The translations under genes and the position numbers were made by a program. A stretch of DNA of 18,293 bases from a virus, in UHGV virus genome UHGV-0114973; one strand, written 5' to 3'. Shown here piece after piece: positions 4,792 to 18,293 of the stretch. Every line of letters starts with the position of its first letter. Positions within the stretch are counted from its first letter, which is position 1. The notes beneath the pieces are model-generated. The model saw nothing but the letters and a program-made list of their open reading frames with translations. It made no database searches and had not been told where the DNA came from.

Positions 4792-5294
4792 TGAGCAATA
4801 CAGATGATTTACCACGGCTTGAGTACGGCGCGAAAATGGTGTTACCTGAGCGTGATAATTACAGTTATAGTCCACCGTGGGGTGTAACTAAATCTGATAT
4901 TTCCGGGACGCTATCACGGTTAGGTCGTAGCGCCTTTGGTGGCCCTGCTCAGGTATCGTGTACAATTCAGTTATATAGTCCTGCGATGCTTCAGTGGTGG
5001 GACGACTTTTATAATCTAGAAATCGCTGAAGGTAGTAAGCGGTTTGTGATGCAACTGTTTGTGAACGGTTTGATTCAGGAACACGTTGTTCAGATTGTCA
5101 GTAACCCGTCGTCCTCTGTTGTAGGATGGAAAGGATCTGTCGATCTACAGTTGCAAGCTGTTCCTGTAATCGACCGTTGCGCAATGGCATCACGATTGTT
5201 AATCACTAAATGCCAGGGTGATTACGCTGCTTGTTACCTTAAAGAAATTATTGATACTGGCCTACTCTTAAATAACGCGTGGACACCAGAATGA
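4791..5294 (+). CDS. minor tail protein (gpM-like position)
   Basis: 167-aa ORF whose ATG overlaps the tape measure TAA by 1 nt (TAATG). Called from position and translational coupling only. Confidence 0.5.
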   Translation: MSNTDDLPRLEYGAKMVLPERDNYSYSPPWGVTKSDISGTLSRLGRSAFGGPAQVSCTIQLYSPAMLQWWDDFYNLEIAEGSKRFVMQLFVNGLIQEHVVQIVSNPSSSVVGWKGSVDLQLQAVPVIDRCAMASRLLITKCQGDYAACYLKEIIDTGLLLNNAWTPE

Positions 5295-5797
5295 AAGACG
5301 AACTGCGTGAATTATTAACGGTCGCAACAACTGGTAAAGGTGTTGTTGACGGTGTGAAACTGAATCATAGTTCATGGCCTAATCCGCTATACATCACCAG
5401 TATTTATCCGGGATTTATCGCTGTGCATGAAGACGGTAAGGAATACGAGTATGAGTACGTTCCGATGTCCGTCAAGAAGGCGAATAAACAAAACGATTTA
5501 TCACAGGATTATTCATTCACTATTCAGGATTTGAATGAAGTTGTTGGTGTATATCTGGACTTAATTCCTCTTGACAGTAATGAAAAACCATCTGTTGAGT
5601 TGCGAACGTTTGTTTACCGTGAAGATGGTTCCATGTCTGATATTCAGGATGGACCATATCTTCTGGAATCTGGCGATATTACTACTGAACCACAGGGTTG
5701 TACGTTTACAGCGTCACCACCTATTACGAACTTTGCCGGGACAGGTGAATTATATACGTTTGAACGTTTTCCCACTCTACTGGCGTATGCAACATGA
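5291..5797 (+). CDS. minor tail protein (gpL-like position)
   Basis: ATG at 5291 overlaps the upstream stop (ATGA); the GTG at 5279 given in the ORF track is less likely. 168 aa. Called from position only. Confidence 0.5.
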   Translation: MKDELRELLTVATTGKGVVDGVKLNHSSWPNPLYITSIYPGFIAVHEDGKEYEYEYVPMSVKKANKQNDLSQDYSFTIQDLNEVVGVYLDLIPLDSNEKPSVELRTFVYREDGSMSDIQDGPYLLESGDITTEPQGCTFTASPPITNFAGTGELYTFERFPTLLAYAT

Positions 5798-6153
5798 TCG
5801 GTGATCGCTACGATATTGATAAATGGAATTGTACACACGAGGTTAGTCAGTGGTATCAGGTCCACAACTACCCACACGTATTGAAAACTGTTTCAGGTGA
5901 TGAATGGGATATTGCGTTTGTTCGTTGGATGCGAAAACGTTTTTTACCAATTACCACACCGGAACAAGGTGCACTCGTACTGATGAAGAACAGATATTCA
6001 GGCGGTTTTCATGTCGGCGTGTGGGATTGTGGAATGGTTCATCATTGTTATCAACCACCGGGTGATTCACCGGGACAGACAATCAGATCACCTTTAAGTA
6101 TAATCAAGACAGCACATAAAGAAATCACGTTCTGGAGAATGAAAAGTGTCTAA
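5794..6153 (+). CDS. NlpC/P60-like cysteine peptidase-fold tail assembly/tip protein (gpK-like)
   Basis: 119 aa. Candidate catalytic Cys in WNCTHEV and His in GGFHVGVWD, the spacing typical of NlpC/P60 and CHAP papain-like folds. ATGA overlap with the upstream gene. Position matches lambda K. Confidence 0.55.
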   Translation: MIGDRYDIDKWNCTHEVSQWYQVHNYPHVLKTVSGDEWDIAFVRWMRKRFLPITTPEQGALVLMKNRYSGGFHVGVWDCGMVHHCYQPPGDSPGQTIRSPLSIIKTAHKEITFWRMKSV

Positions 6154-8677
6154 AGTCATCTATCACACTAATCCTGTTGAACACGCTGATAACGTTGACT
6201 TTGGTGAATGGATGCTGAAACGCTGGCCCGTGGGTACAGTTCGTCCGCGTGGGTTACTGATTTATAAAAACGACGAAAACATTACCCAAAAGTGGGTTAC
6301 TGACCCCAGCGTATTGACTGATCCTGATGCTGTTTATCATATTTATGAACTACCAAAAGGTGGAGTGGTTAGTGCAATAACGAAAGTTATTAGCACAATT
6401 TTAAATCCCATTTTAAAATTGTTCATGCCGAATACCAGTGCATCGGCTAATCTTAAGAATTCACGTTCAGCATCGTCTAACAACGCGCTTCAGGGGCGTA
6501 CTAATGCTTCACGACCGGGTGAACGTATTTCTGATATCCGCGGTCGTGTACTGGCATATCCTGACCTGTTAATGGACTACCGAATCTTCATTGACCGAAC
6601 AGAATATGAAGTTCAGTTTCTGTGTCTGGGTGCTGGTGAATACGAAGTCGAAGATGTTCGTGATGGTATTACACCTGCTGTAAATATCAGCGGTGAAAAA
6701 TTAGACTTTTATAAAAAAGGTAATGCACCAGGGTATGGTTCTCCATATATGAATATCGGTGGTGCAATTGATATTAACACTTTTCCGATCATGGTTGCTA
6801 AGTCGTCGAACGAAGCAGACGGATCTGAAGTCAAGCCACCAAACTATGCTGATATCAGCAAAGCGAGTTTTAAAATTTACAGCACTGGTGAAATTGATAC
6901 TACGATTACCAGTGATGATAACACTACGATTGACTGGTCGGAACGTGCACCAATCGGTAGTAAAATTCGTTTATCACAATTTTACAGTTTTACACCTAAT
7001 ACGTTACCGTTAAACACGTATGTACGTAATGACCTGTCCGGTGAATATGATGTTATTTATGCAGGTGAGAATACGTTAATCATTGATACTACTGGTCGTG
7101 AAGGTTGGGATGCTCTGTCTGAAAGTGGTCAGGCTGCATATACACAGGCTTATTTGCGAAACGACGGTTACTGGGAATTTGAAACCACTGAAGGAAGTGG
7201 AAGTATTTTATACAAGTTTTCACCGTCTCTTGACAGTACCACACCGTATATTGTCGGGCCTTATCTGATTGACAGTGCGGATAAGTTGATGATTAATCTT
7301 TATGCACAGAATGGTGTGTATAAAACTGATGGCGACATTTATCCGTTCACCTGTAATTTCCAGGTAGTATTGTCAGACCCGAACGGTGTGAAAGCGAATG
7401 TGACACACTCTATGTCTGTTCGCGGTCGTTATACAGAAGCCGTAGGTAATTCATTAATTGTGGATAACCCTTTTGACGGTCCTGTCAACGTGTCTGTAAG
7501 ACGACTATCAAATACAGATAAAGACTTCGAAGGGTCTGTTGTTGACAACATCAAGTGGCGCGATTTATACGCTATCACGAATGTTTCTCCGCGTTCCTAT
7601 GGTGATGTGACATTGATCCATACAGTGACAAAAGCAACAAACGCTGCACTGAAACAAAAAGAACGTAAATTAAACATGATTGCAACACGTGTGTATAACG
7701 ATGTTGCAAGTAGTAATTTTGCAGACGTTGTAATGTCAATGCACACAGATCCTTTATTTGGTCGTCGCACATTGGACACTATTGATCGCGATGCTTTATA
7801 TGCTGTTCAGGAACAACTTCTTGAATATTTTGGTGACCAACGAGCAATTGAAGTTGGCTATACGTTTGATAATAACAGTACGACGTACGAAGAAGGATTG
7901 GACACTATCTGTAACACGGTGAATGTTAAACCGTATCAGATCGGTAGTGTATTGTATTTCTGGCCTGAATTACCACAGAACCAGTCCGCAATGCAGTTTG
8001 GTCACGCATTTAAGATCCCTGACAGTGATAAACGTACGCGCTCTTTTGCGCCACCTAAAGAATATACTGGTGTTCAGGTTAAATACTTCGATCACGATGA
8101 AAAATCATATTTATACGTAACTAAAGGTGAGGAAACAAACCTCAATAAGATAGATCTTGTCGCATGTCAGTCGCGATATCTTGCAAATATCCGTGCTAAT
8201 CGTGAAATGAATAAGTTACGTTATCAACGTATTACCCACGAGTGTACAGCGCTTAGTATTGGATTACAGGCTACCCCAGGTATGCGAGTGGATATGATTG
8301 ACAATACCCGTATGAAACAACATGAAGGTGTTGTAGTTGACGTTGACGGTTTAACACTTATTCTTAGTGATCCTGTTACGTTCACCACGGGTAATACATA
8401 CAGTATAACATTGACACACCGACTGGGAACACTTGAAAACATTCCTGTAACTGCCGGGGATGATGAGTTTTCCGTGGTGATGGCGTACCAGCCATCTGAA
8501 GAAATTTATACAGGATGGTTGCGTGACCGTACAGCATATGTGATCCGTGCTGATGATGAGCGTAGCAAATTAGCAATGCTTGTTCAGAGTATGGAACCGT
8601 CAGGAAGGGATAATAACTATCAGGTAGGTTTAACGTGCATCAATTACGATGCACGTTATTATCAGGATGATTTATAA
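6146..8677 (+). CDS. tail tip/hub protein (gpJ-like, without a long C-terminal receptor-binding extension)
   Basis: 843-aa ORF starting at a GTG with GGAGA 7 nt upstream, overlapping the previous stop. Large beta-rich protein at the end of the tail assembly operon. Confidence 0.6.
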
Positions 8678-9135: not shown

Positions 9136-11397
9136 TCATGTTATGTTGCCATATGTTGCTGATGATACCTGATTTATCACAGCGGAAGAACCTGAACCTT
9201 TACGTATACCGTTTACATCAGCTGACATTAGTGCCGGTAAGGTTACTTTAGAACTCCCGCCTGCATATCCAAGATTACCCGCTGTTGTACCAGAAGTCCT
9301 AAGGCCAGTTATTAGGAGAGAACCGGCGCTACAAACAAACCCAGAGAAAGGTGCTGCTGGTATACCTTGAATATTAACCAGATCTAAATCTGCAACAGTG
9401 TAATTGCAATTTGAAATTAATGCAGGTATCAAAGACCCATAAACACCTAAACGTAAGCGTACATTAGATGATTGGTTCTTTAGCACCGCAACAGCCGTTT
9501 CAGTGGCGGAAGAGCCTGTCACGTTGTAAACATTGAAATCCAACTTCAGAGGCGCTCCTGGCTTACCCGCAAAACCAGTTGTCGAATCATCAATAAGTCC
9601 GTAATTAACGTTCATTACGTTACCCTGAATTACTCCAGTTGCCCCAGATCCTGGTGAAGCAGGGTTGAACGCAATGGCCCTGTAAGTAACTACGGTAGAT
9701 GATGACTCACCGTTACCTTTAATATTAACATTGGTAATTGAAACTCTGTTATCTATTGTACCAAAGTAAATAGGAGTCGCCGGGCAGGCCTTACTCTCCA
9801 AACCACTAAGGGTTACAAGGTTTATGCCAGTCTGTGTAATCAAAGCGGGCCATGCTGGTATATAATTACCAAATGCTAAATCGGACACCTGGTTAGAGAA
9901 TCCTTTAATAATGGTGCCATTAGACACGCATGAGCTAAAGGCCACTCCGTTCACGCAGTGCTCAACCAATAGATTGCCGAAAAAATGGTCAATAAGTGAC
10001 TCAAACTGGATACCAACACCGCCTCGCCTGACACCATTCGCGTCTGTACGAAGATATTTAAACCCAGCAGACCAAATATCGTATGTATAAACACTATCAG
10101 AGCTGGAGATTAAAAGACCAGCACCAGTGCGTCCCGCCCATCGGGCGTCACCTGTAGCATTAAAATCGTAAAATGTAACTTTAAATCCTTGAAATGTGTG
10201 CATCTCTCCGCTCATGTCACTAAATTCAATCGCGGCATTGCTTTCTTCTGAAGGATTTGTCAGCACAATATAAGACAATCCCATCCCTGCACCAATCATT
10301 CCTCCGCCATTTTTGTTGTAACGAATCGTAGAAGGTGACGTAACGCGATACCATAACTTAAGATGGCTATCTATTCTGTATTTTCCCGGTGAAAGTAGGA
10401 TATATGACTGGAAATACTCGGATTGATAATAGCTGCCAGCAACTACCTCCACGTTAAATTCACCACACGTCGCATGCCATGCTTTATGGAACGCGTCAGT
10501 GCAGTCAATGCTTGAAGCTAACTCATCATAAGTGTTAACTGTTTTTGCTCCGAACCATTCAGGTCTAACAGGTCCCGTTGGAACTTTCACAGATGGTACA
10601 GTTAGATAATTGGCGATAAAATCATCTTCTGTGTCAAATATTTGATAACAACCAGCATCAATTTCTGCATTAAATTTAACGACTGCACCGTTTCTTATTT
10701 TTAATACTGCACCATGAATAAAAGTAACAGGAATATTAAATGTAATGTTTGAATTTATAAGATATGTACCGGGGACAAATACGACAGGATTGCCAGATGA
10801 CGAAAGATTTTCTAGAGCGGCATTTATCCCCGGCGCATCATCAGTGACACCATCACCAGTGACATTAGCCATATCTTTAATTGATATATGCTCAGATAGC
10901 CAATCGTGAACAGTCTTAATTTTAGAACCGTTTATTGGTTGCATGGTTGCTATAAGTGAGTCGCCAAAACCGTCAGCATCTGAACTTAAATTAGCACGCA
11001 ATGAAGCATCACCAACACTAACCCATCCACCAAGACCAATGCCACCAGCAGTTTCCGGAGTTGAACCAGTATCAACTGTTTTAGGAAACTCGCCATCCCA
11101 GCGGTAATATTCACCAGTTGCTTCGTAACGCAATACCTGATTAGGTAATGTAAGTATCGCACCATCTTCGAAGCTATCCATCGTTATATAGCCGACCTGA
11201 GATATAGCCTGATTGTACAGGGTTTCTAAACCATCAAGTGTCTTGTTGGTCACTGATTGACCACGGATCGTATCGGTAACATCCAACGCGTGTTTACCGT
11301 TTTCATCACGACTTTTTGCAACGTGTTCAATATGTAAAATCGCTTGTTTGCCTGTTTTCAAATCATCAGCACTGATATAATCGTTACAGTTAGCCAT
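9136..11397 (-). CDS. tailspike protein, probable polysaccharide depolymerase with a right-handed beta-helix
   Basis: Start taken at the ATG 11397 (MANCNDY...) with GGAGA 7 nt upstream, rather than the TTG at 11424. After an N-terminal module of about 190 aa comes NVTGDGVTDDAPGINAALENLSSSGNPVVFVPGTYLINSNITF, the hallmark start of pectate-lyase-type beta-helix tailspikes. The remainder is Gly/Ser/Asn/Thr-rich. Confidence 0.8.
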   Translation of the reverse strand: MANCNDYISADDLKTGKQAILHIEHVAKSRDENGKHALDVTDTIRGQSVTNKTLDGLETLYNQAISQVGYITMDSFEDGAILTLPNQVLRYEATGEYYRWDGEFPKTVDTGSTPETAGGIGLGGWVSVGDASLRANLSSDADGFGDSLIATMQPINGSKIKTVHDWLSEHISIKDMANVTGDGVTDDAPGINAALENLSSSGNPVVFVPGTYLINSNITFNIPVTFIHGAVLKIRNGAVVKFNAEIDAGCYQIFDTEDDFIANYLTVPSVKVPTGPVRPEWFGAKTVNTYDELASSIDCTDAFHKAWHATCGEFNVEVVAGSYYQSEYFQSYILLSPGKYRIDSHLKLWYRVTSPSTIRYNKNGGGMIGAGMGLSYIVLTNPSEESNAAIEFSDMSGEMHTFQGFKVTFYDFNATGDARWAGRTGAGLLISSSDSVYTYDIWSAGFKYLRTDANGVRRGGVGIQFESLIDHFFGNLLVEHCVNGVAFSSCVSNGTIIKGFSNQVSDLAFGNYIPAWPALITQTGINLVTLSGLESKACPATPIYFGTIDNRVSITNVNIKGNGESSSTVVTYRAIAFNPASPGSGATGVIQGNVMNVNYGLIDDSTTGFAGKPGAPLKLDFNVYNVTGSSATETAVAVLKNQSSNVRLRLGVYGSLIPALISNCNYTVADLDLVNIQGIPAAPFSGFVCSAGSLLITGLRTSGTTAGNLGYAGGSSKVTLPALMSADVNGIRKGSGSSAVINQVSSATYGNIT
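11373..11381 (+). promoter_or_regulatory. candidate extended -10 promoter (TGaTATAAT) for the lysis genes, inside the tailspike 5' coding region
   Basis: TG at 11373-11374 and a perfect TATAAT at 11376-11381, about 40 nt upstream of the ATG at 11424. No good -35 element. The divergent start codons are only 26 bp apart, so a promoter must lie inside a neighbouring gene. Confidence 0.25.
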
Positions 11398-11423
11398 CTT
11401 TAAGTCTCCAGGAGTGTAGAACA

Positions 11424-11702
11424 ATGTCTGATAACCCGGTGTTGAGGTATTGGCCTATAATAGCATTTGTTGCCACGGGGTTGGTAGGTTACGGGGTAAC
11501 TCAAAACCAAATCAATTCTAATGAAAAAGATATTGCAGATGCAAAAACCTATGCGCATGAGGCGCTTAATCTGGCAAAACGAGTGGAATCCCGAGTGGAT
11601 GTTCACGACATCAAAATCGAATATCAGGCCACACAGAACGCTGAAATCCTCACCAGTGTTAAAGAGCTAACACAGTCAACAAATGAAAGCGGAACAACGT
11701 AA
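11424..11702 (+). CDS. small single-pass membrane protein, lysis-associated (holin or antiholin candidate)
   Basis: 92 aa. One N-terminal hydrophobic segment (WPIIAFVATGLVGYGV) followed by a charged helical region. AGGAG 9 nt upstream. Immediately precedes the endolysin gene. Confidence 0.4.
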   Translation: MSDNPVLRYWPIIAFVATGLVGYGVTQNQINSNEKDIADAKTYAHEALNLAKRVESRVDVHDIKIEYQATQNAEILTSVKELTQSTNESGTT

Positions 11703-12818: not shown

Positions 12819-13031
12819 ATCTTCAACCGATACTTCAATCCACGATGCGGGAACCGGATATTCAGTCCGGTACATGAACAAGGATGTTCCTATCAACCCG
12901 TGTGGATCTGTTTTAATCCCTCGCATGTTCAACAATGGAAAAAACTGTTCGCGTGTTTGTGGCAATCTTGCAAAGCGTCCTGTCGGGCGTTTAGCAGGAT
13001 CCATAGGGTTGAATTCAACGATTGTGGACAT
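12798..13031 (-). CDS. hypothetical protein (77 aa), last gene of the minus-strand operon
   Basis: ATG at 13031-13029 with AGGAG 8 nt upstream. Overlaps the Dam-like gene's 3' end by 17 nt and the o-spanin 3' end convergently by 21 nt. Confidence 0.4.
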   Translation of the reverse strand: MSTIVEFNPMDPAKRPTGRFARLPQTREQFFPLLNMRGIKTDPHGLIGTSLFMYRTEYPVPASWIEVSVEDLLKTVY

Positions 13032-13536
13032 AACAATAACTCCTGTACGCTTGTCTTTTTATTTTCTGATAGTCGGAAACTTTTACAGATCTTGTTTTAC
13101 ATTCACCAATACGATGTGGGTCGAAAATAAACATCATCTGTGAACGGTCATTTCCTCCTGCTGGTAACCCGGTGTCAGGGTCTACAAACGCTATACGGCC
13201 TTTAAACACCCATAGTTCCGAACAATGTGTCAGTGCTTTGTGAAACCAGTCTGCAGACGTCATAGCGTTCACGAGTAATAACGAACCAGTTCCCTGATGA
13301 ACAGTGGTTATTATTTTATTAACCCAGGGAGACGGATCGCTATACGGTGGGTTGCACCAGACGAACCCACCACCATTACTTTGAACAATCGAATGCCAGT
13401 CTTTATTCAGACTATCAGTGATAAATAACGAACATTTAGCGTTAGAACCATCGGTACACACATCAAGAACAAGTGGGAATTCACGAGAAACGTTATCAAT
13501 AAAATCCCACGGTGTTTCCCAGTTGTCTTTAGCCAT
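13015..13536 (-). CDS. phage Dam-like DNA N6-adenine methyltransferase (orphan)
   Basis: Motifs WETPWDF, LDVCT, the catalytic CNPPYS (the N6-adenine methyltransferase DPPY-type motif) and WFHK. Start taken at the ATG 13536 (MAKDNWETPWDF) rather than the TTG at 13596. No restriction enzyme partner is visible. Confidence 0.8.
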   Translation of the reverse strand: MAKDNWETPWDFIDNVSREFPLVLDVCTDGSNAKCSLFITDSLNKDWHSIVQSNGGGFVWCNPPYSDPSPWVNKIITTVHQGTGSLLLVNAMTSADWFHKALTHCSELWVFKGRIAFVDPDTGLPAGGNDRSQMMFIFDPHRIGECKTRSVKVSDYQKIKRQAYRSYCYVHNR

Positions 13537-13882
13537 GTTCCGGTACGCTCTCCACACTGTAATAAACGGGGATGCCCAGACGTTCAGCTTCTGCAATTTC
13601 TGCTAGCGTACCAGACGAACGACGATAATCAGGAAGCACCAGAACAGCGTCACAGCGGCGCATAATTTCTAACGTACCTGATAGGTAGTATTCAGGTTGT
13701 ATATTGCGTAAACCGCCGTCAAAATCCCACAATTCGGTGTTCTTGTGAGGAATAACCGGGAACCATCCCGGACGTTGTAAAGCCAGTCGTTTACCTGCCT
13801 GTTCAGCGCGTGACACGTTACGGGATGTTTTAAGCGCACAATCAGCACGATAAGGCCCGGCAATGTAACAGAGTTTAATCAT
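13529..13882 (-). CDS. nucleoside 2-deoxyribosyltransferase-like (NDT / DUF1937-type fold) protein
   Basis: Start taken at the ATG 13882 (MIKLCYIAGPY...) with AGGAAA 6 nt upstream. N-terminal YIAGP motif and a later D...SSGTLAEIAEAERLGIPVYY segment match my recollection of the two signature segments of the deoxyribosyltransferase / Rcl-type Rossmann fold. Overlaps both neighbours by 8 nt. Confidence 0.6.
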   Translation of the reverse strand: MIKLCYIAGPYRADCALKTSRNVSRAEQAGKRLALQRPGWFPVIPHKNTELWDFDGGLRNIQPEYYLSGTLEIMRRCDAVLVLPDYRRSSGTLAEIAEAERLGIPVYYSVESVPEHG

Positions 13883-14778: not shown

Positions 14779-16635
14779 TTACCGAAGTGGTGCAACGAGT
14801 TTTTCAGCTTCTTTGATGTAAAAATCATAATTGAGCGTTGCCCGGTTAAAACGTTTCATGTCGTTACATTCCGTGGTCAACCAACCTTTGCACACGGACA
14901 TACGGCGCTCAGGCGCGTCAGGGTTCAGTTTCAGTGATTTTGCCAGCGGTGGCATGACTTTTGTCAAAGGTGCACCATCTGTACTGACGTAATAACGGGT
15001 AATGTTCTGAACCTGTTTATCACCCCATAGTAATTTGCTGTTACGTGGTACTTTCGTCACTAACATGAAATCGTGAATATCTTCGTGTGATGTTATAAAA
15101 TCACGAATGTCTTTATTGTGTACCAGTGCTGCTTCAGCCGCTTTTGCGACAACCTGCATACTGTGGTTTTGATGCCAACCCAGATCAACGCTGTGACAAT
15201 AAGCGCCTTTACGTTTAACTTTCTTACCGCCTTCGTAAACAGCGATGTAATTATTTACATCGCGGATAAACATCACGTCATAAATTGCTTCTTCAAGCTG
15301 GAGTCTGGTTAATTTTTCCCACGCGTGACGAACCTGTTCTACTTGTCCGGTAAACACTCGTGGCACGTAAACCGTAAGACCATCTGTGTTAGCCTGGATC
15401 ATGGACAAACCAGGGATTTTCAGAAGTTCTTCAGCCAACATACACAAAAGTAACTGTCCGTTAATCGTAATAGCCATTGTGTAAGCAGGATCGTAGAATG
15501 GACTGTATACGTTATTACTGTCACCATACACACCGTTTAACGCCAGTTTTAACATTGCATTTTCTGGTGTACCTTTCGGGTAACTGGAACGCATGTCGTA
15601 AACATTTTTATAAATGGTGCAAAATTGTTTTCCCAGATGTGCCGGATAAAGTTCATTACTGATCGCAAGGTTCGGATAAAAACTGGCAACGTCCAGATCG
15701 ATGATCACATAATTTTCAGTGGACCTGATAGTTTGAGACTCAATAGACCCGTGGATACCACCCGTACCAAAATCAAACGAGAACCCGTTAATGTCTGCGC
15801 TTAAATCTGTGAATACACCTTTTGTTTCAGTGATAACCTGTTGACGTAACCAGTTAAGAACACGATTAAATTCAGGCTGTTCAAAACGGACATAAGGGAA
15901 AATCACACTGTTCAATGCGATTGATGGTCTGTGCGTCTGTCGTGGTTTTCTGCTACCCGGTTCGAAACATTGAATACCTGATTTTTCAAGTTCCATGATG
16001 AAATATTCTTTACCGATTTTCGTGTCGTTATGGTTCATGAAATTACGACCGTATTTAGCAGAAAGTTCACGACGAAAATCTATCAGCTTTTTACTGTGTT
16101 TATAAAACATCAAAGTCGCTTTCAAATCGTGCATCAGATATTGACGAAGCGTATCAATTTGAGAATCGGTTAAATAAGTCCCTGGCGTAAACGGAAGGTC
16201 TTCAATGTTTTCCATTCTCATATTGAATTCAAGTGTTTTCAGACTTGTTCGTTTTGCCTGATTGTCGAAATGATGAATTTTATACAAATCAAGCTGGGGA
16301 ACTATCCAGTCTTTTTCCCACACCATATGAGCAAAACGATTTTCATCACCAGCGTTAATTATTGAATCACCTTTTTTATAAATGTCTGCGTTGGTGATAT
16401 ACATGATGTTGTTCAAAATAGAATGCTGAACAGGATAGTCGTAACCCAGATTGTTATAACCAATTTCTTCAGCACGATGTTCACGCAAATATTCTGTGAA
16501 CAGGTAAAAAGCCTGACGATCATCGCGACGATGTGAAATCTCAAAAATATAAGGCGTTTCGGTTAACGCGTGAATAGCACCGAACAGAAAAACATTAGGA
16601 TAGTTTTCAATATCGTGAACGTAAGCATCTGACAT
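14779..16635 (-). CDS. compact family-B DNA polymerase with a 3'-5' exonuclease domain
   Basis: 618 aa. Exo I D8-I-E10; Exo II N62-L-G-Y-D66; Exo III Y166-L-M-H-D170 (spacing close to phi29 DNA polymerase); motif A D315-V-A-S-F-Y-P (Dx2SLYP-type); motif B K363-L-A-L-N-G-V-Y-G (Kx3NSxYG-type); motif C N416-T-D418 (an NTD variant of DTD). Motifs are only 48 and 55 aa apart and no TPR-like insertions are evident. Confidence 0.7.
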   Translation of the reverse strand: MSDAYVHDIENYPNVFLFGAIHALTETPYIFEISHRRDDRQAFYLFTEYLREHRAEEIGYNNLGYDYPVQHSILNNIMYITNADIYKKGDSIINAGDENRFAHMVWEKDWIVPQLDLYKIHHFDNQAKRTSLKTLEFNMRMENIEDLPFTPGTYLTDSQIDTLRQYLMHDLKATLMFYKHSKKLIDFRRELSAKYGRNFMNHNDTKIGKEYFIMELEKSGIQCFEPGSRKPRQTHRPSIALNSVIFPYVRFEQPEFNRVLNWLRQQVITETKGVFTDLSADINGFSFDFGTGGIHGSIESQTIRSTENYVIIDLDVASFYPNLAISNELYPAHLGKQFCTIYKNVYDMRSSYPKGTPENAMLKLALNGVYGDSNNVYSPFYDPAYTMAITINGQLLLCMLAEELLKIPGLSMIQANTDGLTVYVPRVFTGQVEQVRHAWEKLTRLQLEEAIYDVMFIRDVNNYIAVYEGGKKVKRKGAYCHSVDLGWHQNHSMQVVAKAAEAALVHNKDIRDFITSHEDIHDFMLVTKVPRNSKLLWGDKQVQNITRYYVSTDGAPLTKVMPPLAKSLKLNPDAPERRMSVCKGWLTTECNDMKRFNRATLNYDFYIKEAEKLVAPLR

Positions 16636-16656
16636 AATAAAACCCTGATAAGTAAA

Positions 16657-16674
16657 TGGGGCACTATGGCCCCA
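16657..16674 (-). other. hairpin between the 273-aa gene and the PolB gene
   Basis: TGGGGC, loop ACTATG, GCCCCA. On the minus strand it is followed by TTTACTTATCAGGGTTTTATT directly before the PolB ATG. May act as an attenuator or processing site. Confidence 0.3.
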
Positions 16675-16715
16675 TGTCTGTTTAAAGCGGTATATCGTCC
16701 CAGTTCCAGTAACTA

Positions 16716-17537
16716 TCAGTAACCGTTACCGTTGAGAAAATTCGGGGCCGGGGTGGTCATTACCATATAACCATTAGCAATCAGTTGTTCATCGTTCCAA
16801 CCTTGCGCAATAAACTGTTCGTAAGTTGCACCACCTGCTTTTTCAGTCATTACTTTTACAGGTGCTGCCGCTGGTGTAGGCGCTGCTACAGGTGCTGCCG
16901 CTGGTGTAGGCGCTGCTACAGGTGCTGCCGCTGGTGTTACGCCGATCGGACGTGCACCTTCAGGCATTGCAGGAGCAGCGCCAAACACAGAGGCAGGAGC
17001 CGGACCGGAAATGATTTCTTCACCCGCATAAAGCAATTGCGCCATTTCCATGTTGATATACACACCAGCCTGGTTACCTGTACGACCGTTTGCAACAGAT
17101 GATCCGCTGATACGGTAGTAATAACCTTTTTTCGCCAGATTTTTATCAATAACTGGCTGGTACGCTGCGTTATAAACCGGACACGCGTCAATAGCCACGT
17201 TGCGTGAGAAACCAATTACCCAGTGACCAGCATAACCAGTTTTACTCGCATGTTTCGGATCATCACCGTTAATAATTTTCCATGCGAAAGTAGGTTGTTG
17301 TGGTTCGCCGTTCACATAGTGTGAGTTCGCCGCTCGCATAATCGCCTGGAATACCGCACCCAGTTCACCTTGTTCTTCCCACCAGTTCGCCGCTGTTTTA
17401 GGAAACGCCAGACCAACCCACCAGTTGTGTTTTTCAGGTGCTAACGGTTTATTTTCGTGGTCATGAGTGTTGATATCGAAAAAAGAACCGCCAACCAGAC
17501 GACCAACCGGAGTTACAAAAGATTCTTTCTGTGCCAT
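16716..17537 (-). CDS. replication-associated protein with a PA-rich repeat linker; possibly an ssDNA-binding protein
   Basis: 273 aa with AGAAGG ribosome-binding site 8 nt upstream. The N-terminus MAQKESFVTPVG loosely resembles the start of T7 gp2.5-type SSBs, which is weak evidence. Three tandem PAAAPVAAPT units form a linker before a short C-terminal domain. Sits directly upstream of PolB in the same operon. Confidence 0.45.
   Translation of the reverse strand: MAQKESFVTPVGRLVGGSFFDINTHDHENKPLAPEKHNWWVGLAFPKTAANWWEEQGELGAVFQAIMRAANSHYVNGEPQQPTFAWKIINGDDPKHASKTGYAGHWVIGFSRNVAIDACPVYNAAYQPVIDKNLAKKGYYYRISGSSVANGRTGNQAGVYINMEMAQLLYAGEEIISGPAPASVFGAAPAMPEGARPIGVTPAAAPVAAPTPAAAPVAAPTPAAAPVKVMTEKAGGATYEQFIAQGWNDEQLIANGYMVMTTPAPNFLNGNGY
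16861..16937. repeat. 30-bp tandem repeat, about 2.6 copies
   Basis: GGTGCTGCCGCTGGTGTAGGCGCTGCTACA occurs at 16861-16890 and 16891-16920, with a partial third copy at 16921-16937. It lies inside the 273-aa gene and encodes the PAAAPVAAPT repeats. Confidence 0.9.
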
Positions 17538-17552
17538 GTTATTAACCTTCTT

Positions 17553-18293
17553 TTAAAGTGGACGTGCGCCAGTCGGCATCGTCACGGGTTTATTAAAAAC
17601 AGATTCTGCCAGTGTGCTGTGACCTTTACGCGGGTCACTGTCAGGTACTAAAACTGGCTGACCTTCTGGTTTTGTCGTACACATGTCAACAAGTGCCGGA
17701 GGCAGTGATTTTTCCAGTGTTGACAATGGTTTTAATTTACGTTCGTACAATGTTTCAGGGTTTACACCAAACATTGGTGCAGCACCGATCAGTTTTCCTT
17801 CGTCCGTAAGCTGACGTCGGGTTTGTTTTGTTGCAAGTTTAAAACCCGGTAAAGCCTTACCCATGCGAACAAAATGTAATCCCTGAGTATGTAACGCTGT
17901 TTTTGCTTCAGAAGAACGCGTATACAGTTCTTCAAGAAGTGCCAGACGACGCGCTACTTCTTCTGGCGTAAGTGATGGTGGTGCGTCAAGAACAGTAGCC
18001 AATTCTAAAACCCTCTCATACATTGCCGGACACATACCACGCGCCGGACAGTAATGACAATGACTACCAACATTTAACGGTGCGTCTGGTTTATGTGCTT
18101 CGTTAAACCCGTGTTTAAATCGTTCAGCCCATTCCATCAATGTTGCCCGGTTAAACTCCCATCGTCTTACAGGTCCGAGTGGGTGATAAGCCCGTGGCTG
18201 AACAATTGTGAACACAACGCGCTTAACGGTGTCGATGCAACGTTGGTCCAGTGCATAATAGACCCCCTGTGAGTTATCAACTGCTTCAACTGC
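17553..18293 (-). CDS. Cas4/RecB-like PD-(D/E)XK nuclease candidate, partial (N-terminus beyond the window)
   Basis: The minus-strand frame stays open to the window edge. Contains the cluster C-H-Y-C-P-A-R-G-M-C (C-x2-C-x5-C), as in Fe-S-bearing RecB-family nucleases, followed by a C-terminal extension of about 150 aa. The nuclease core motifs would lie upstream and were not seen. Confidence 0.45.
   Translation of the reverse strand, partial: AVEAVDNSQGVYYALDQRCIDTVKRVVFTIVQPRAYHPLGPVRRWEFNRATLMEWAERFKHGFNEAHKPDAPLNVGSHCHYCPARGMCPAMYERVLELATVLDAPPSLTPEEVARRLALLEELYTRSSEAKTALHTQGLHFVRMGKALPGFKLATKQTRRQLTDEGKLIGAAPMFGVNPETLYERKLKPLSTLEKSLPPALVDMCTTKPEGQPVLVPDSDPRKGHSTLAESVFNKPVTMPTGARPL

Follow-up and report, generated by a model that had tools for sequence, protein, structure and literature searches.

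The gene at positions 14779 to 16635 of the window (the whole stretch of DNA analysed here, which covers 18.3 kb of a genome of ~58 kb) very probably encodes the replicative, proofreading and primer-dependent family-B DNA polymerase (PolB) of a Sashavirus, a 9NA-like siphophage, and this enzyme belongs to a very large clade of compact phage PolBs (~600-700 aa) that includes the polymerases of the crAss-like phages. The family is already known and catalogued, and it is included in published PolB surveys.

Coding frame and conserved motifs

The open reading frame lies on the minus strand, where it runs from an ATG at 16635-16633 to a stop codon at 14781-14779 and specifies 618 amino acids; a plus-strand translation of the same interval contains many stops. 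An earlier, sequence-only reading of this DNA had reported the 618-aa frame correctly but left its strand unstated. Its observations are confirmed overall, and its interpretation holds in part. In the protein, the approximate domain limits are residues 1-200 for the exonuclease, 200-310 for a linker or N-terminal-like region, 310-480 for the palm with its short fingers and 480-618 for the thumb. Each of the motifs listed below was verified by translating its own coordinates, and their conservation was scored across 114 aligned sequences, namely the query and 113 representatives of 41-54% identity.

14779..16635, minus strand: family-B DNA polymerase gene (open reading frame; PHROG 1252; 99% identity to annotated Sashavirus polymerases; AF2 model)
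16606..16614, minus strand: ExoI, D8-I-E10 (D and E in 112/114)
16438..16452, minus strand: ExoII, N62-LGY-D66 (D66 invariant; N62 in 105/114)
16126..16140, minus strand: ExoIII, Y166-LMH-D170 (Y and D in 113/114)
15673..15699, minus strand: motif A, D313-L-D315-VASFYP (D315 and Y320 invariant; D313 in 111/114)
15574..15591, minus strand: first, short helix of the fingers, bearing R349 and K354 (R349 invariant; K354 in 109/114)
15523..15549, minus strand: motif B, K363-LALNGVYG (K363 and G371 invariant; N367 in 113/114)
15379..15390, minus strand: motif C, N416-T417-D418-G419, that is, NTDG for DTD[S/G] (invariant in 114/114)
15247..15255, minus strand: N461-N-Y463, counterpart of the KxY primer-terminus motif with Lys replaced by Asn (N461 in 113/114; Y463 invariant)

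The exonuclease residues of the PolB pattern (DxE, Nx2-3[F/Y]D and Yx3D) are all present and are kept in 92% or more of the aligned sequences, DVASFYP and KLALNGVYG correspond to the PolB motifs A (DxxSLYPS) and B (Kx3NSxYG), and a further residue, K474, is invariant. All five of these motifs had been recognised in the sequence-only reading, and translation of their coordinates bears out each of them. Their conservation across the alignment indicates that the polymerase and exonuclease motifs are not chance matches. The distance between motifs A and B (D315 to K363) is 48 aa, as had been reported, and that between B and C (K363 to D418) is 55 aa; in the alignment as a whole the corresponding ranges are 48-53 and 53-57 aa. 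Such short intervals leave no room for TPR-like insertions, whose absence had likewise been remarked upon.

The PolB reference pattern for motif C (YxDTDS) has two aspartates, of which the query has only the second. The loss of the first had been noticed from the sequence alone, but it is a property of the entire clade. NTDG is best taken as a recognised variant of motif C and not as a ground for excluding the protein from PolB, because the active piPolBs and the accepted PolB groups PolB_SITDG and B2 are also without the first Asp. In the case of the piPolBs, polymerisation is efficient in spite of this (Redrejo-Rodriguez et al. 2017, PMC5695915; Kazlauskas et al. 2020, PMC7544198).

An additional acidic residue, D313 (15697-15699, minus strand), occurs two positions before the catalytic D315 and, at that separation, should share a face of the strand with it. 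D313 is kept in crAss-like, JG054 and RcAquaphina polymerases (most of the Gram-negative and crAss members) and is missing from the Enterococcus and Leuconostoc phage enzymes. One might speculate that D313 compensates for N416.

Profile and fold evidence for family B

No Pfam model, PF00136 and PF03104 among those searched, matched the query at E <= 1, and in NCBIfam the Pol II model scored only 13.6 bits, where its cutoff is 570. When six diverse members of the clade were compared with PF00136, just two of them touched it (E = 0.0035). This failure is a matter of model coverage and not of fold, and since both collections miss the protein, its assignment to family B rests on profile and fold searches. 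The match to PHROG 1252 ('DNA polymerase') has E = 1.7e-215. Plain phmmer against PDB sequences gave nothing better than a Thermococcus PolB at E = 0.013. An exhaustive search of representatives of 50%-identity clusters yielded 4858 homologues with E <= 1e-3, and a family profile made from the query and 113 of these was then used against the PDB sequences. Its matches were to archaeal PolBs (E = 9e-8), the RB69 exonuclease domain (E = 1.6e-4), Pol alpha (E = 5e-4) and E. coli Pol II (E = 2.5e-3), which supports the family-B relation. Against known PolBs all three polymerase motifs keep their register, and no gap interrupts the segment between B and C: motif A aligns to LDFRSLYPS of KOD and to the motif A region of Pol epsilon, whose DVASMYP it resembles, motif B has an ungapped counterpart in KILANSVYG of KOD, and N461-N-Y463 aligns to the KKY of the same enzyme.

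The AF2 model computed from the 114-sequence alignment has a pLDDT of 97.2 and matches PolB structures, with an exonuclease followed by palm, fingers and thumb; the fingers consist of helices 337-351 and 357-372. There is consequently good support for the PolB fold, and structure prediction, which had also been suggested at the outset, agrees with the profiles. The comparison figures against individual PolBs are 15.4 for Pol delta, 14.7 for Pol alpha, 14.4 for both Pyrobaculum PolB and Pol epsilon, 14.2 for Pol II, 14.1 for RB69 and 12.1 for phi29. The enzyme is thus roughly equidistant from all characterised PolBs and has no special closeness to phi29; the phi29-like character once attributed to it does not survive a comparison in which phi29 scores lowest. 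In phi29 the fingers are also short, and its long A-to-B distance is due to TPR1. For this reason the contrast between the two enzymes in this interval mostly reflects the missing TPR1.

Differences from the larger PolBs are substantial. Relative to KOD/Tgo PolB, Pol delta, Pol alpha, Pol epsilon, E. coli Pol II and RB69 gp43, the query is without the N-terminal domain that precedes ExoI. KOD has ~35 more residues between motifs A and B, its residues 432-481 being replaced by 345-359 in the query. With respect to the archaeal and eukaryotic primer-dependent PolBs, Pol II and RB69 gp43, the protein is ~150-500 aa smaller, shares only 10-16% identity, and has NTD for DTD and NxY for KxY.

Relatives and the compact phage clade

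Of 50,697 phage records searched by tblastn, 969 gave a match, and in 720 it spanned the full length. The best matches (98.7-99.4% identity) are in Sashavirus/Nonanavirus siphophages (Sashavirus 536P12, PDP46, AVIO78A, PJ16, Sasha, Sergei, Solent and KarinMuster), and these genes are nearly all annotated 'DNA polymerase'. By its own terms, the sequence-only reading's claim of novelty was to fail if close homologues already carried this annotation, and it does fail. The polymerases of Sasha (gp62), Sergei and Solent are 98.9% identical to the query and that of 9NA 57%; there is essentially no difference between the query and these Sashavirus/Nonanavirus enzymes, and it is the neighbouring cargo, a methyltransferase and a tailspike, that differs. 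Sashavirus, Nonanavirus and Gorganvirus have been described as a clade with PolB basal polymerases (Yutin et al. 2024, PMC11348598).

The same features recur in much more distant relatives. When the query was aligned with the enzymes of Crassvirales cr1_1, Pseudomonas phage JG054 (Queuovirinae), Enterococcus phage AL3, Leuconostoc phage phiLNTR3 and Rhodobacter phage RcAquaphina, both NTD and N-x-Y were invariant. Being kept here as well as in the 114-sequence alignment, the NTD, the missing Lys of KxY, the short fingers and the absence of a domain before ExoI are signatures of a very large clade of phage PolBs and are not specific to this gene. The closest predicted folds in BFVD are compact phage PolBs, crAss-like polymerases among them, and the predicted fold of crAss-like cr3_1 has a TM of 0.67 to the query. 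The cr1_1 enzyme is 29% identical to it over 90% of its length (tblastn E = 9e-49), and the crAss-like polymerases have in common with it the compact layout that starts at ExoI, the NTD motif C and N-x-Y for KxY. The query phage itself is an Enterobacteria siphovirus and not a crassvirus. The marks of the crAss-like group, namely a motif C and KxY that diverge from those of other EpsilonN-like PolBs and homology to the crAssphage PolB, are all found in the query. Our own comparisons would consequently place it in that group, within the EpsilonN-like clade described by Kazlauskas et al. 2020 (PMC7544198); this survey lists the 9NA polymerase (UniRef50_A0A060D1M7) in its 'PolBmain' cluster.

Several peculiarities of individual members can be mentioned. 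The cr1_1 PolB (5974-7890) has the C-terminal sequence KQLNLFNFDEY, similar to QLxLF, the motif for beta-clamp binding in bacteria; this QLNLF tail is missing from the Sashavirus enzyme. In Pseudomonas phage JG054 (2802-5986) the PolB homologue directly follows a phage gene for a DNA polymerase III beta-clamp. In Klebsiella phage BUCT791, Flavobacterium phages Fpv20/Fpv2 and another relative, the polymerase gene is annotated as two pieces around an HNH/homing endonuclease gene, which suggests introns, inteins or split genes in the clade.

A search of the open-access literature found no enzymology and no solved structure for any member of this clade; activity with an NTD active site is accordingly inferred from the conservation and from the precedent of the piPolBs. 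By analogy with known PolB structures, D315 of motif A and D418, the second Asp of motif C, would be the metal ligands of the palm and Y320 the steric gate, while R349, K354, K363 and N367 on the minimal two-helix fingers would bind the incoming dNTP, R349 and K354 being the presumed triphosphate-binding residues. The N-terminal DEDD domain (D8, E10, D66, Y166 and D170) would excise misincorporated nucleotides. The fixed Asn in the first position of motif C and the fixed Asn in place of the KxY Lys, both clade-wide, appear compatible with activity, and the enzyme is presumably processive; no processivity factor was identified for Sashavirus.

Three other readings of the enzyme, as inactivated, primer-independent or protein-primed, were considered and rejected. 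It is very unlikely that the lost Asp of motif C cripples synthesis and that the protein is a catalytically impaired or specialised (e.g., translesion) polymerase, as was once proposed for the archaeal PolB2. The NTD in place of DTD speaks for such a reading, and the PolB2 enzymes, which have one motif C Asp only, are weak translesion polymerases (PMC7544198). Unlike in PolB2, none of the three exonuclease motifs and none of the other polymerase motifs varies more than slightly among thousands of homologues, the strict conservation of NTDG argues for a working active site, and the genomes of these lytic phages show no polymerase gene but this one, which is located within the replication module.

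Gene neighbourhood and the source of primers

Two genes of probable replicative function and a terminator-like element lie upstream of the polymerase on the same strand:

16656..16675, minus strand: terminator-like GC-rich hairpin followed by a T-rich tail, TTTACTTAT, ~20 nt before the start codon of the polymerase gene
16716..17537, minus strand: Enc34 / T7 gp2.5-like single-stranded DNA-binding protein (SSB), 273 aa (PF10991, E = 5.8e-6; the annotation of Sasha gp63 agrees)
17553..18293, minus strand: DUF2800 / PD-(D/E)XK Cas4-like nuclease whose N-terminal part is beyond the window (PF10926, E = 3.3e-33; PF12705, E = 8.7e-4)

The full-length Sasha homologue of the nuclease, gp64, matches DUF2800 with E = 9.3e-58, and the gene order of nuclease, SSB, polymerase, hypothetical gene and NinX is shared between Sasha and the window. 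The hairpin is situated between the SSB stop and the polymerase start, at a site that is annotated as a terminator in Sasha, and it may reduce transcriptional read-through to the polymerase. The sequence-only reading had placed the polymerase in an operon with the SSB and the Cas4-like nuclease; the neighbours and their common strand stand, but, because the hairpin separates the SSB and polymerase genes, a single operon for the three is plausible and not certain. The adjacent SSB and nuclease would serve replication and recombination.

In the SSB gene, a 30-nt unit is repeated perfectly in tandem, 2.7 times over (16857-16937), and encodes a Pro/Ala linker, PAAAPVAAPT. Its copy number varies, since the protein has 273 aa in the window and 303 aa in Sasha, where the repeat region is annotated. 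Elsewhere in the window, a Dam-type methyltransferase of 193 aa (13015-13596, minus strand) occupies a position equivalent to that of a 393-aa methyltransferase in Sasha, and a 762-aa tailspike with a Tail_spike_N domain and a pectate-lyase fold (9136-11424, minus strand) stands against a 683-aa tail fibre there. These differences look like host-range and anti-restriction module swaps.

The sequence-only reading had also recommended a search for helicase and primase genes, and such genes are present in the complete genome of the relative Sasha. A divergent neighbouring module encodes an SF2 helicase, a DEDDh exonuclease and gp70 (5272-7626, 784 aa, annotated 'DNA primase'), which has NrS-1-type PrimPol helix-bundle, D5_N and DUF5906 SF3-helicase domains. 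Together with the PolB, gp70 constitutes an archaeo-eukaryotic-style replisome in an enterobacterial siphophage. The primers most likely come from this PrimPol/D5-type SF3 helicase protein, whose gene is outside the window.

It is still less probable that the loss of the first motif C Asp, together with the changed KxY, permits de novo chain initiation by an enzyme of the primer-independent type. The query clade does have NTD and NxY, and the piPolBs, similarly without the first motif C Asp and a canonical KxY, are efficient polymerases (PMC5695915 and PMC7544198). Those enzymes are also distinguished by TPR1, TPR2, the motif KH-X8-KTRG (PMC5695915) and residence in pipolins; the query has neither TPR, reads VNNY...KRKG with the KxY Tyr retained as the invariant Y463, and resides in a lytic siphophage. 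In the Kazlauskas et al. 2020 survey (PMC7544198), moreover, the enzyme falls outside the pPolB/piPolB cluster, and a phage type with its own PrimPol-helicase, as seen in Sasha, has no need of self-priming.

TPR1, inserted in the A-to-B interval, and TPR2, inserted in the B-to-C interval, are equally the signature of the protein-primed polymerases, or pPolBs (PMC5695915). The least probable reading, and one already largely refuted, is that the phi29-like placement of the exonuclease motifs reflects shared ancestry and that a terminal protein at the ends of the genome initiates replication, for the query is without both TPRs, its B-to-C stretch being ungapped against archaeal PolB, has NTD and not the DTD of phi29, lies outside the pPolB cluster of the survey, and comes from a phage type that encodes a primase-helicase, with no terminal protein annotated in the Sasha region examined. 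The absence of room for TPR1 and TPR2 and the presence of a PrimPol-helicase gene point instead to a proofreading PolB that replicates DNA from primers in the ordinary way.

As a discovery the significance of this gene is small, since it is routinely annotated as DNA polymerase. Some value remains in its very large clade, which numbers thousands of 50%-identity clusters, includes the polymerases of the crAss-like gut phages and is missed by Pfam and NCBIfam; phage annotation would gain from a profile HMM built for it. Enzymologists and developers of tools could be drawn to a small proofreading PolB that consists of a single chain and has NTD in its active site. We regard it as unlikely, if worth entertaining, that N416, N461, D313 and the minimal fingers together represent a different active-site solution within family B, for example a relocated metal coordination or an altered handling of the primer terminus or primer type. 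If true, this solution would extend to a highly abundant clade of phage polymerases, those of the crAss-like, Queuovirinae and Sashavirus phages.
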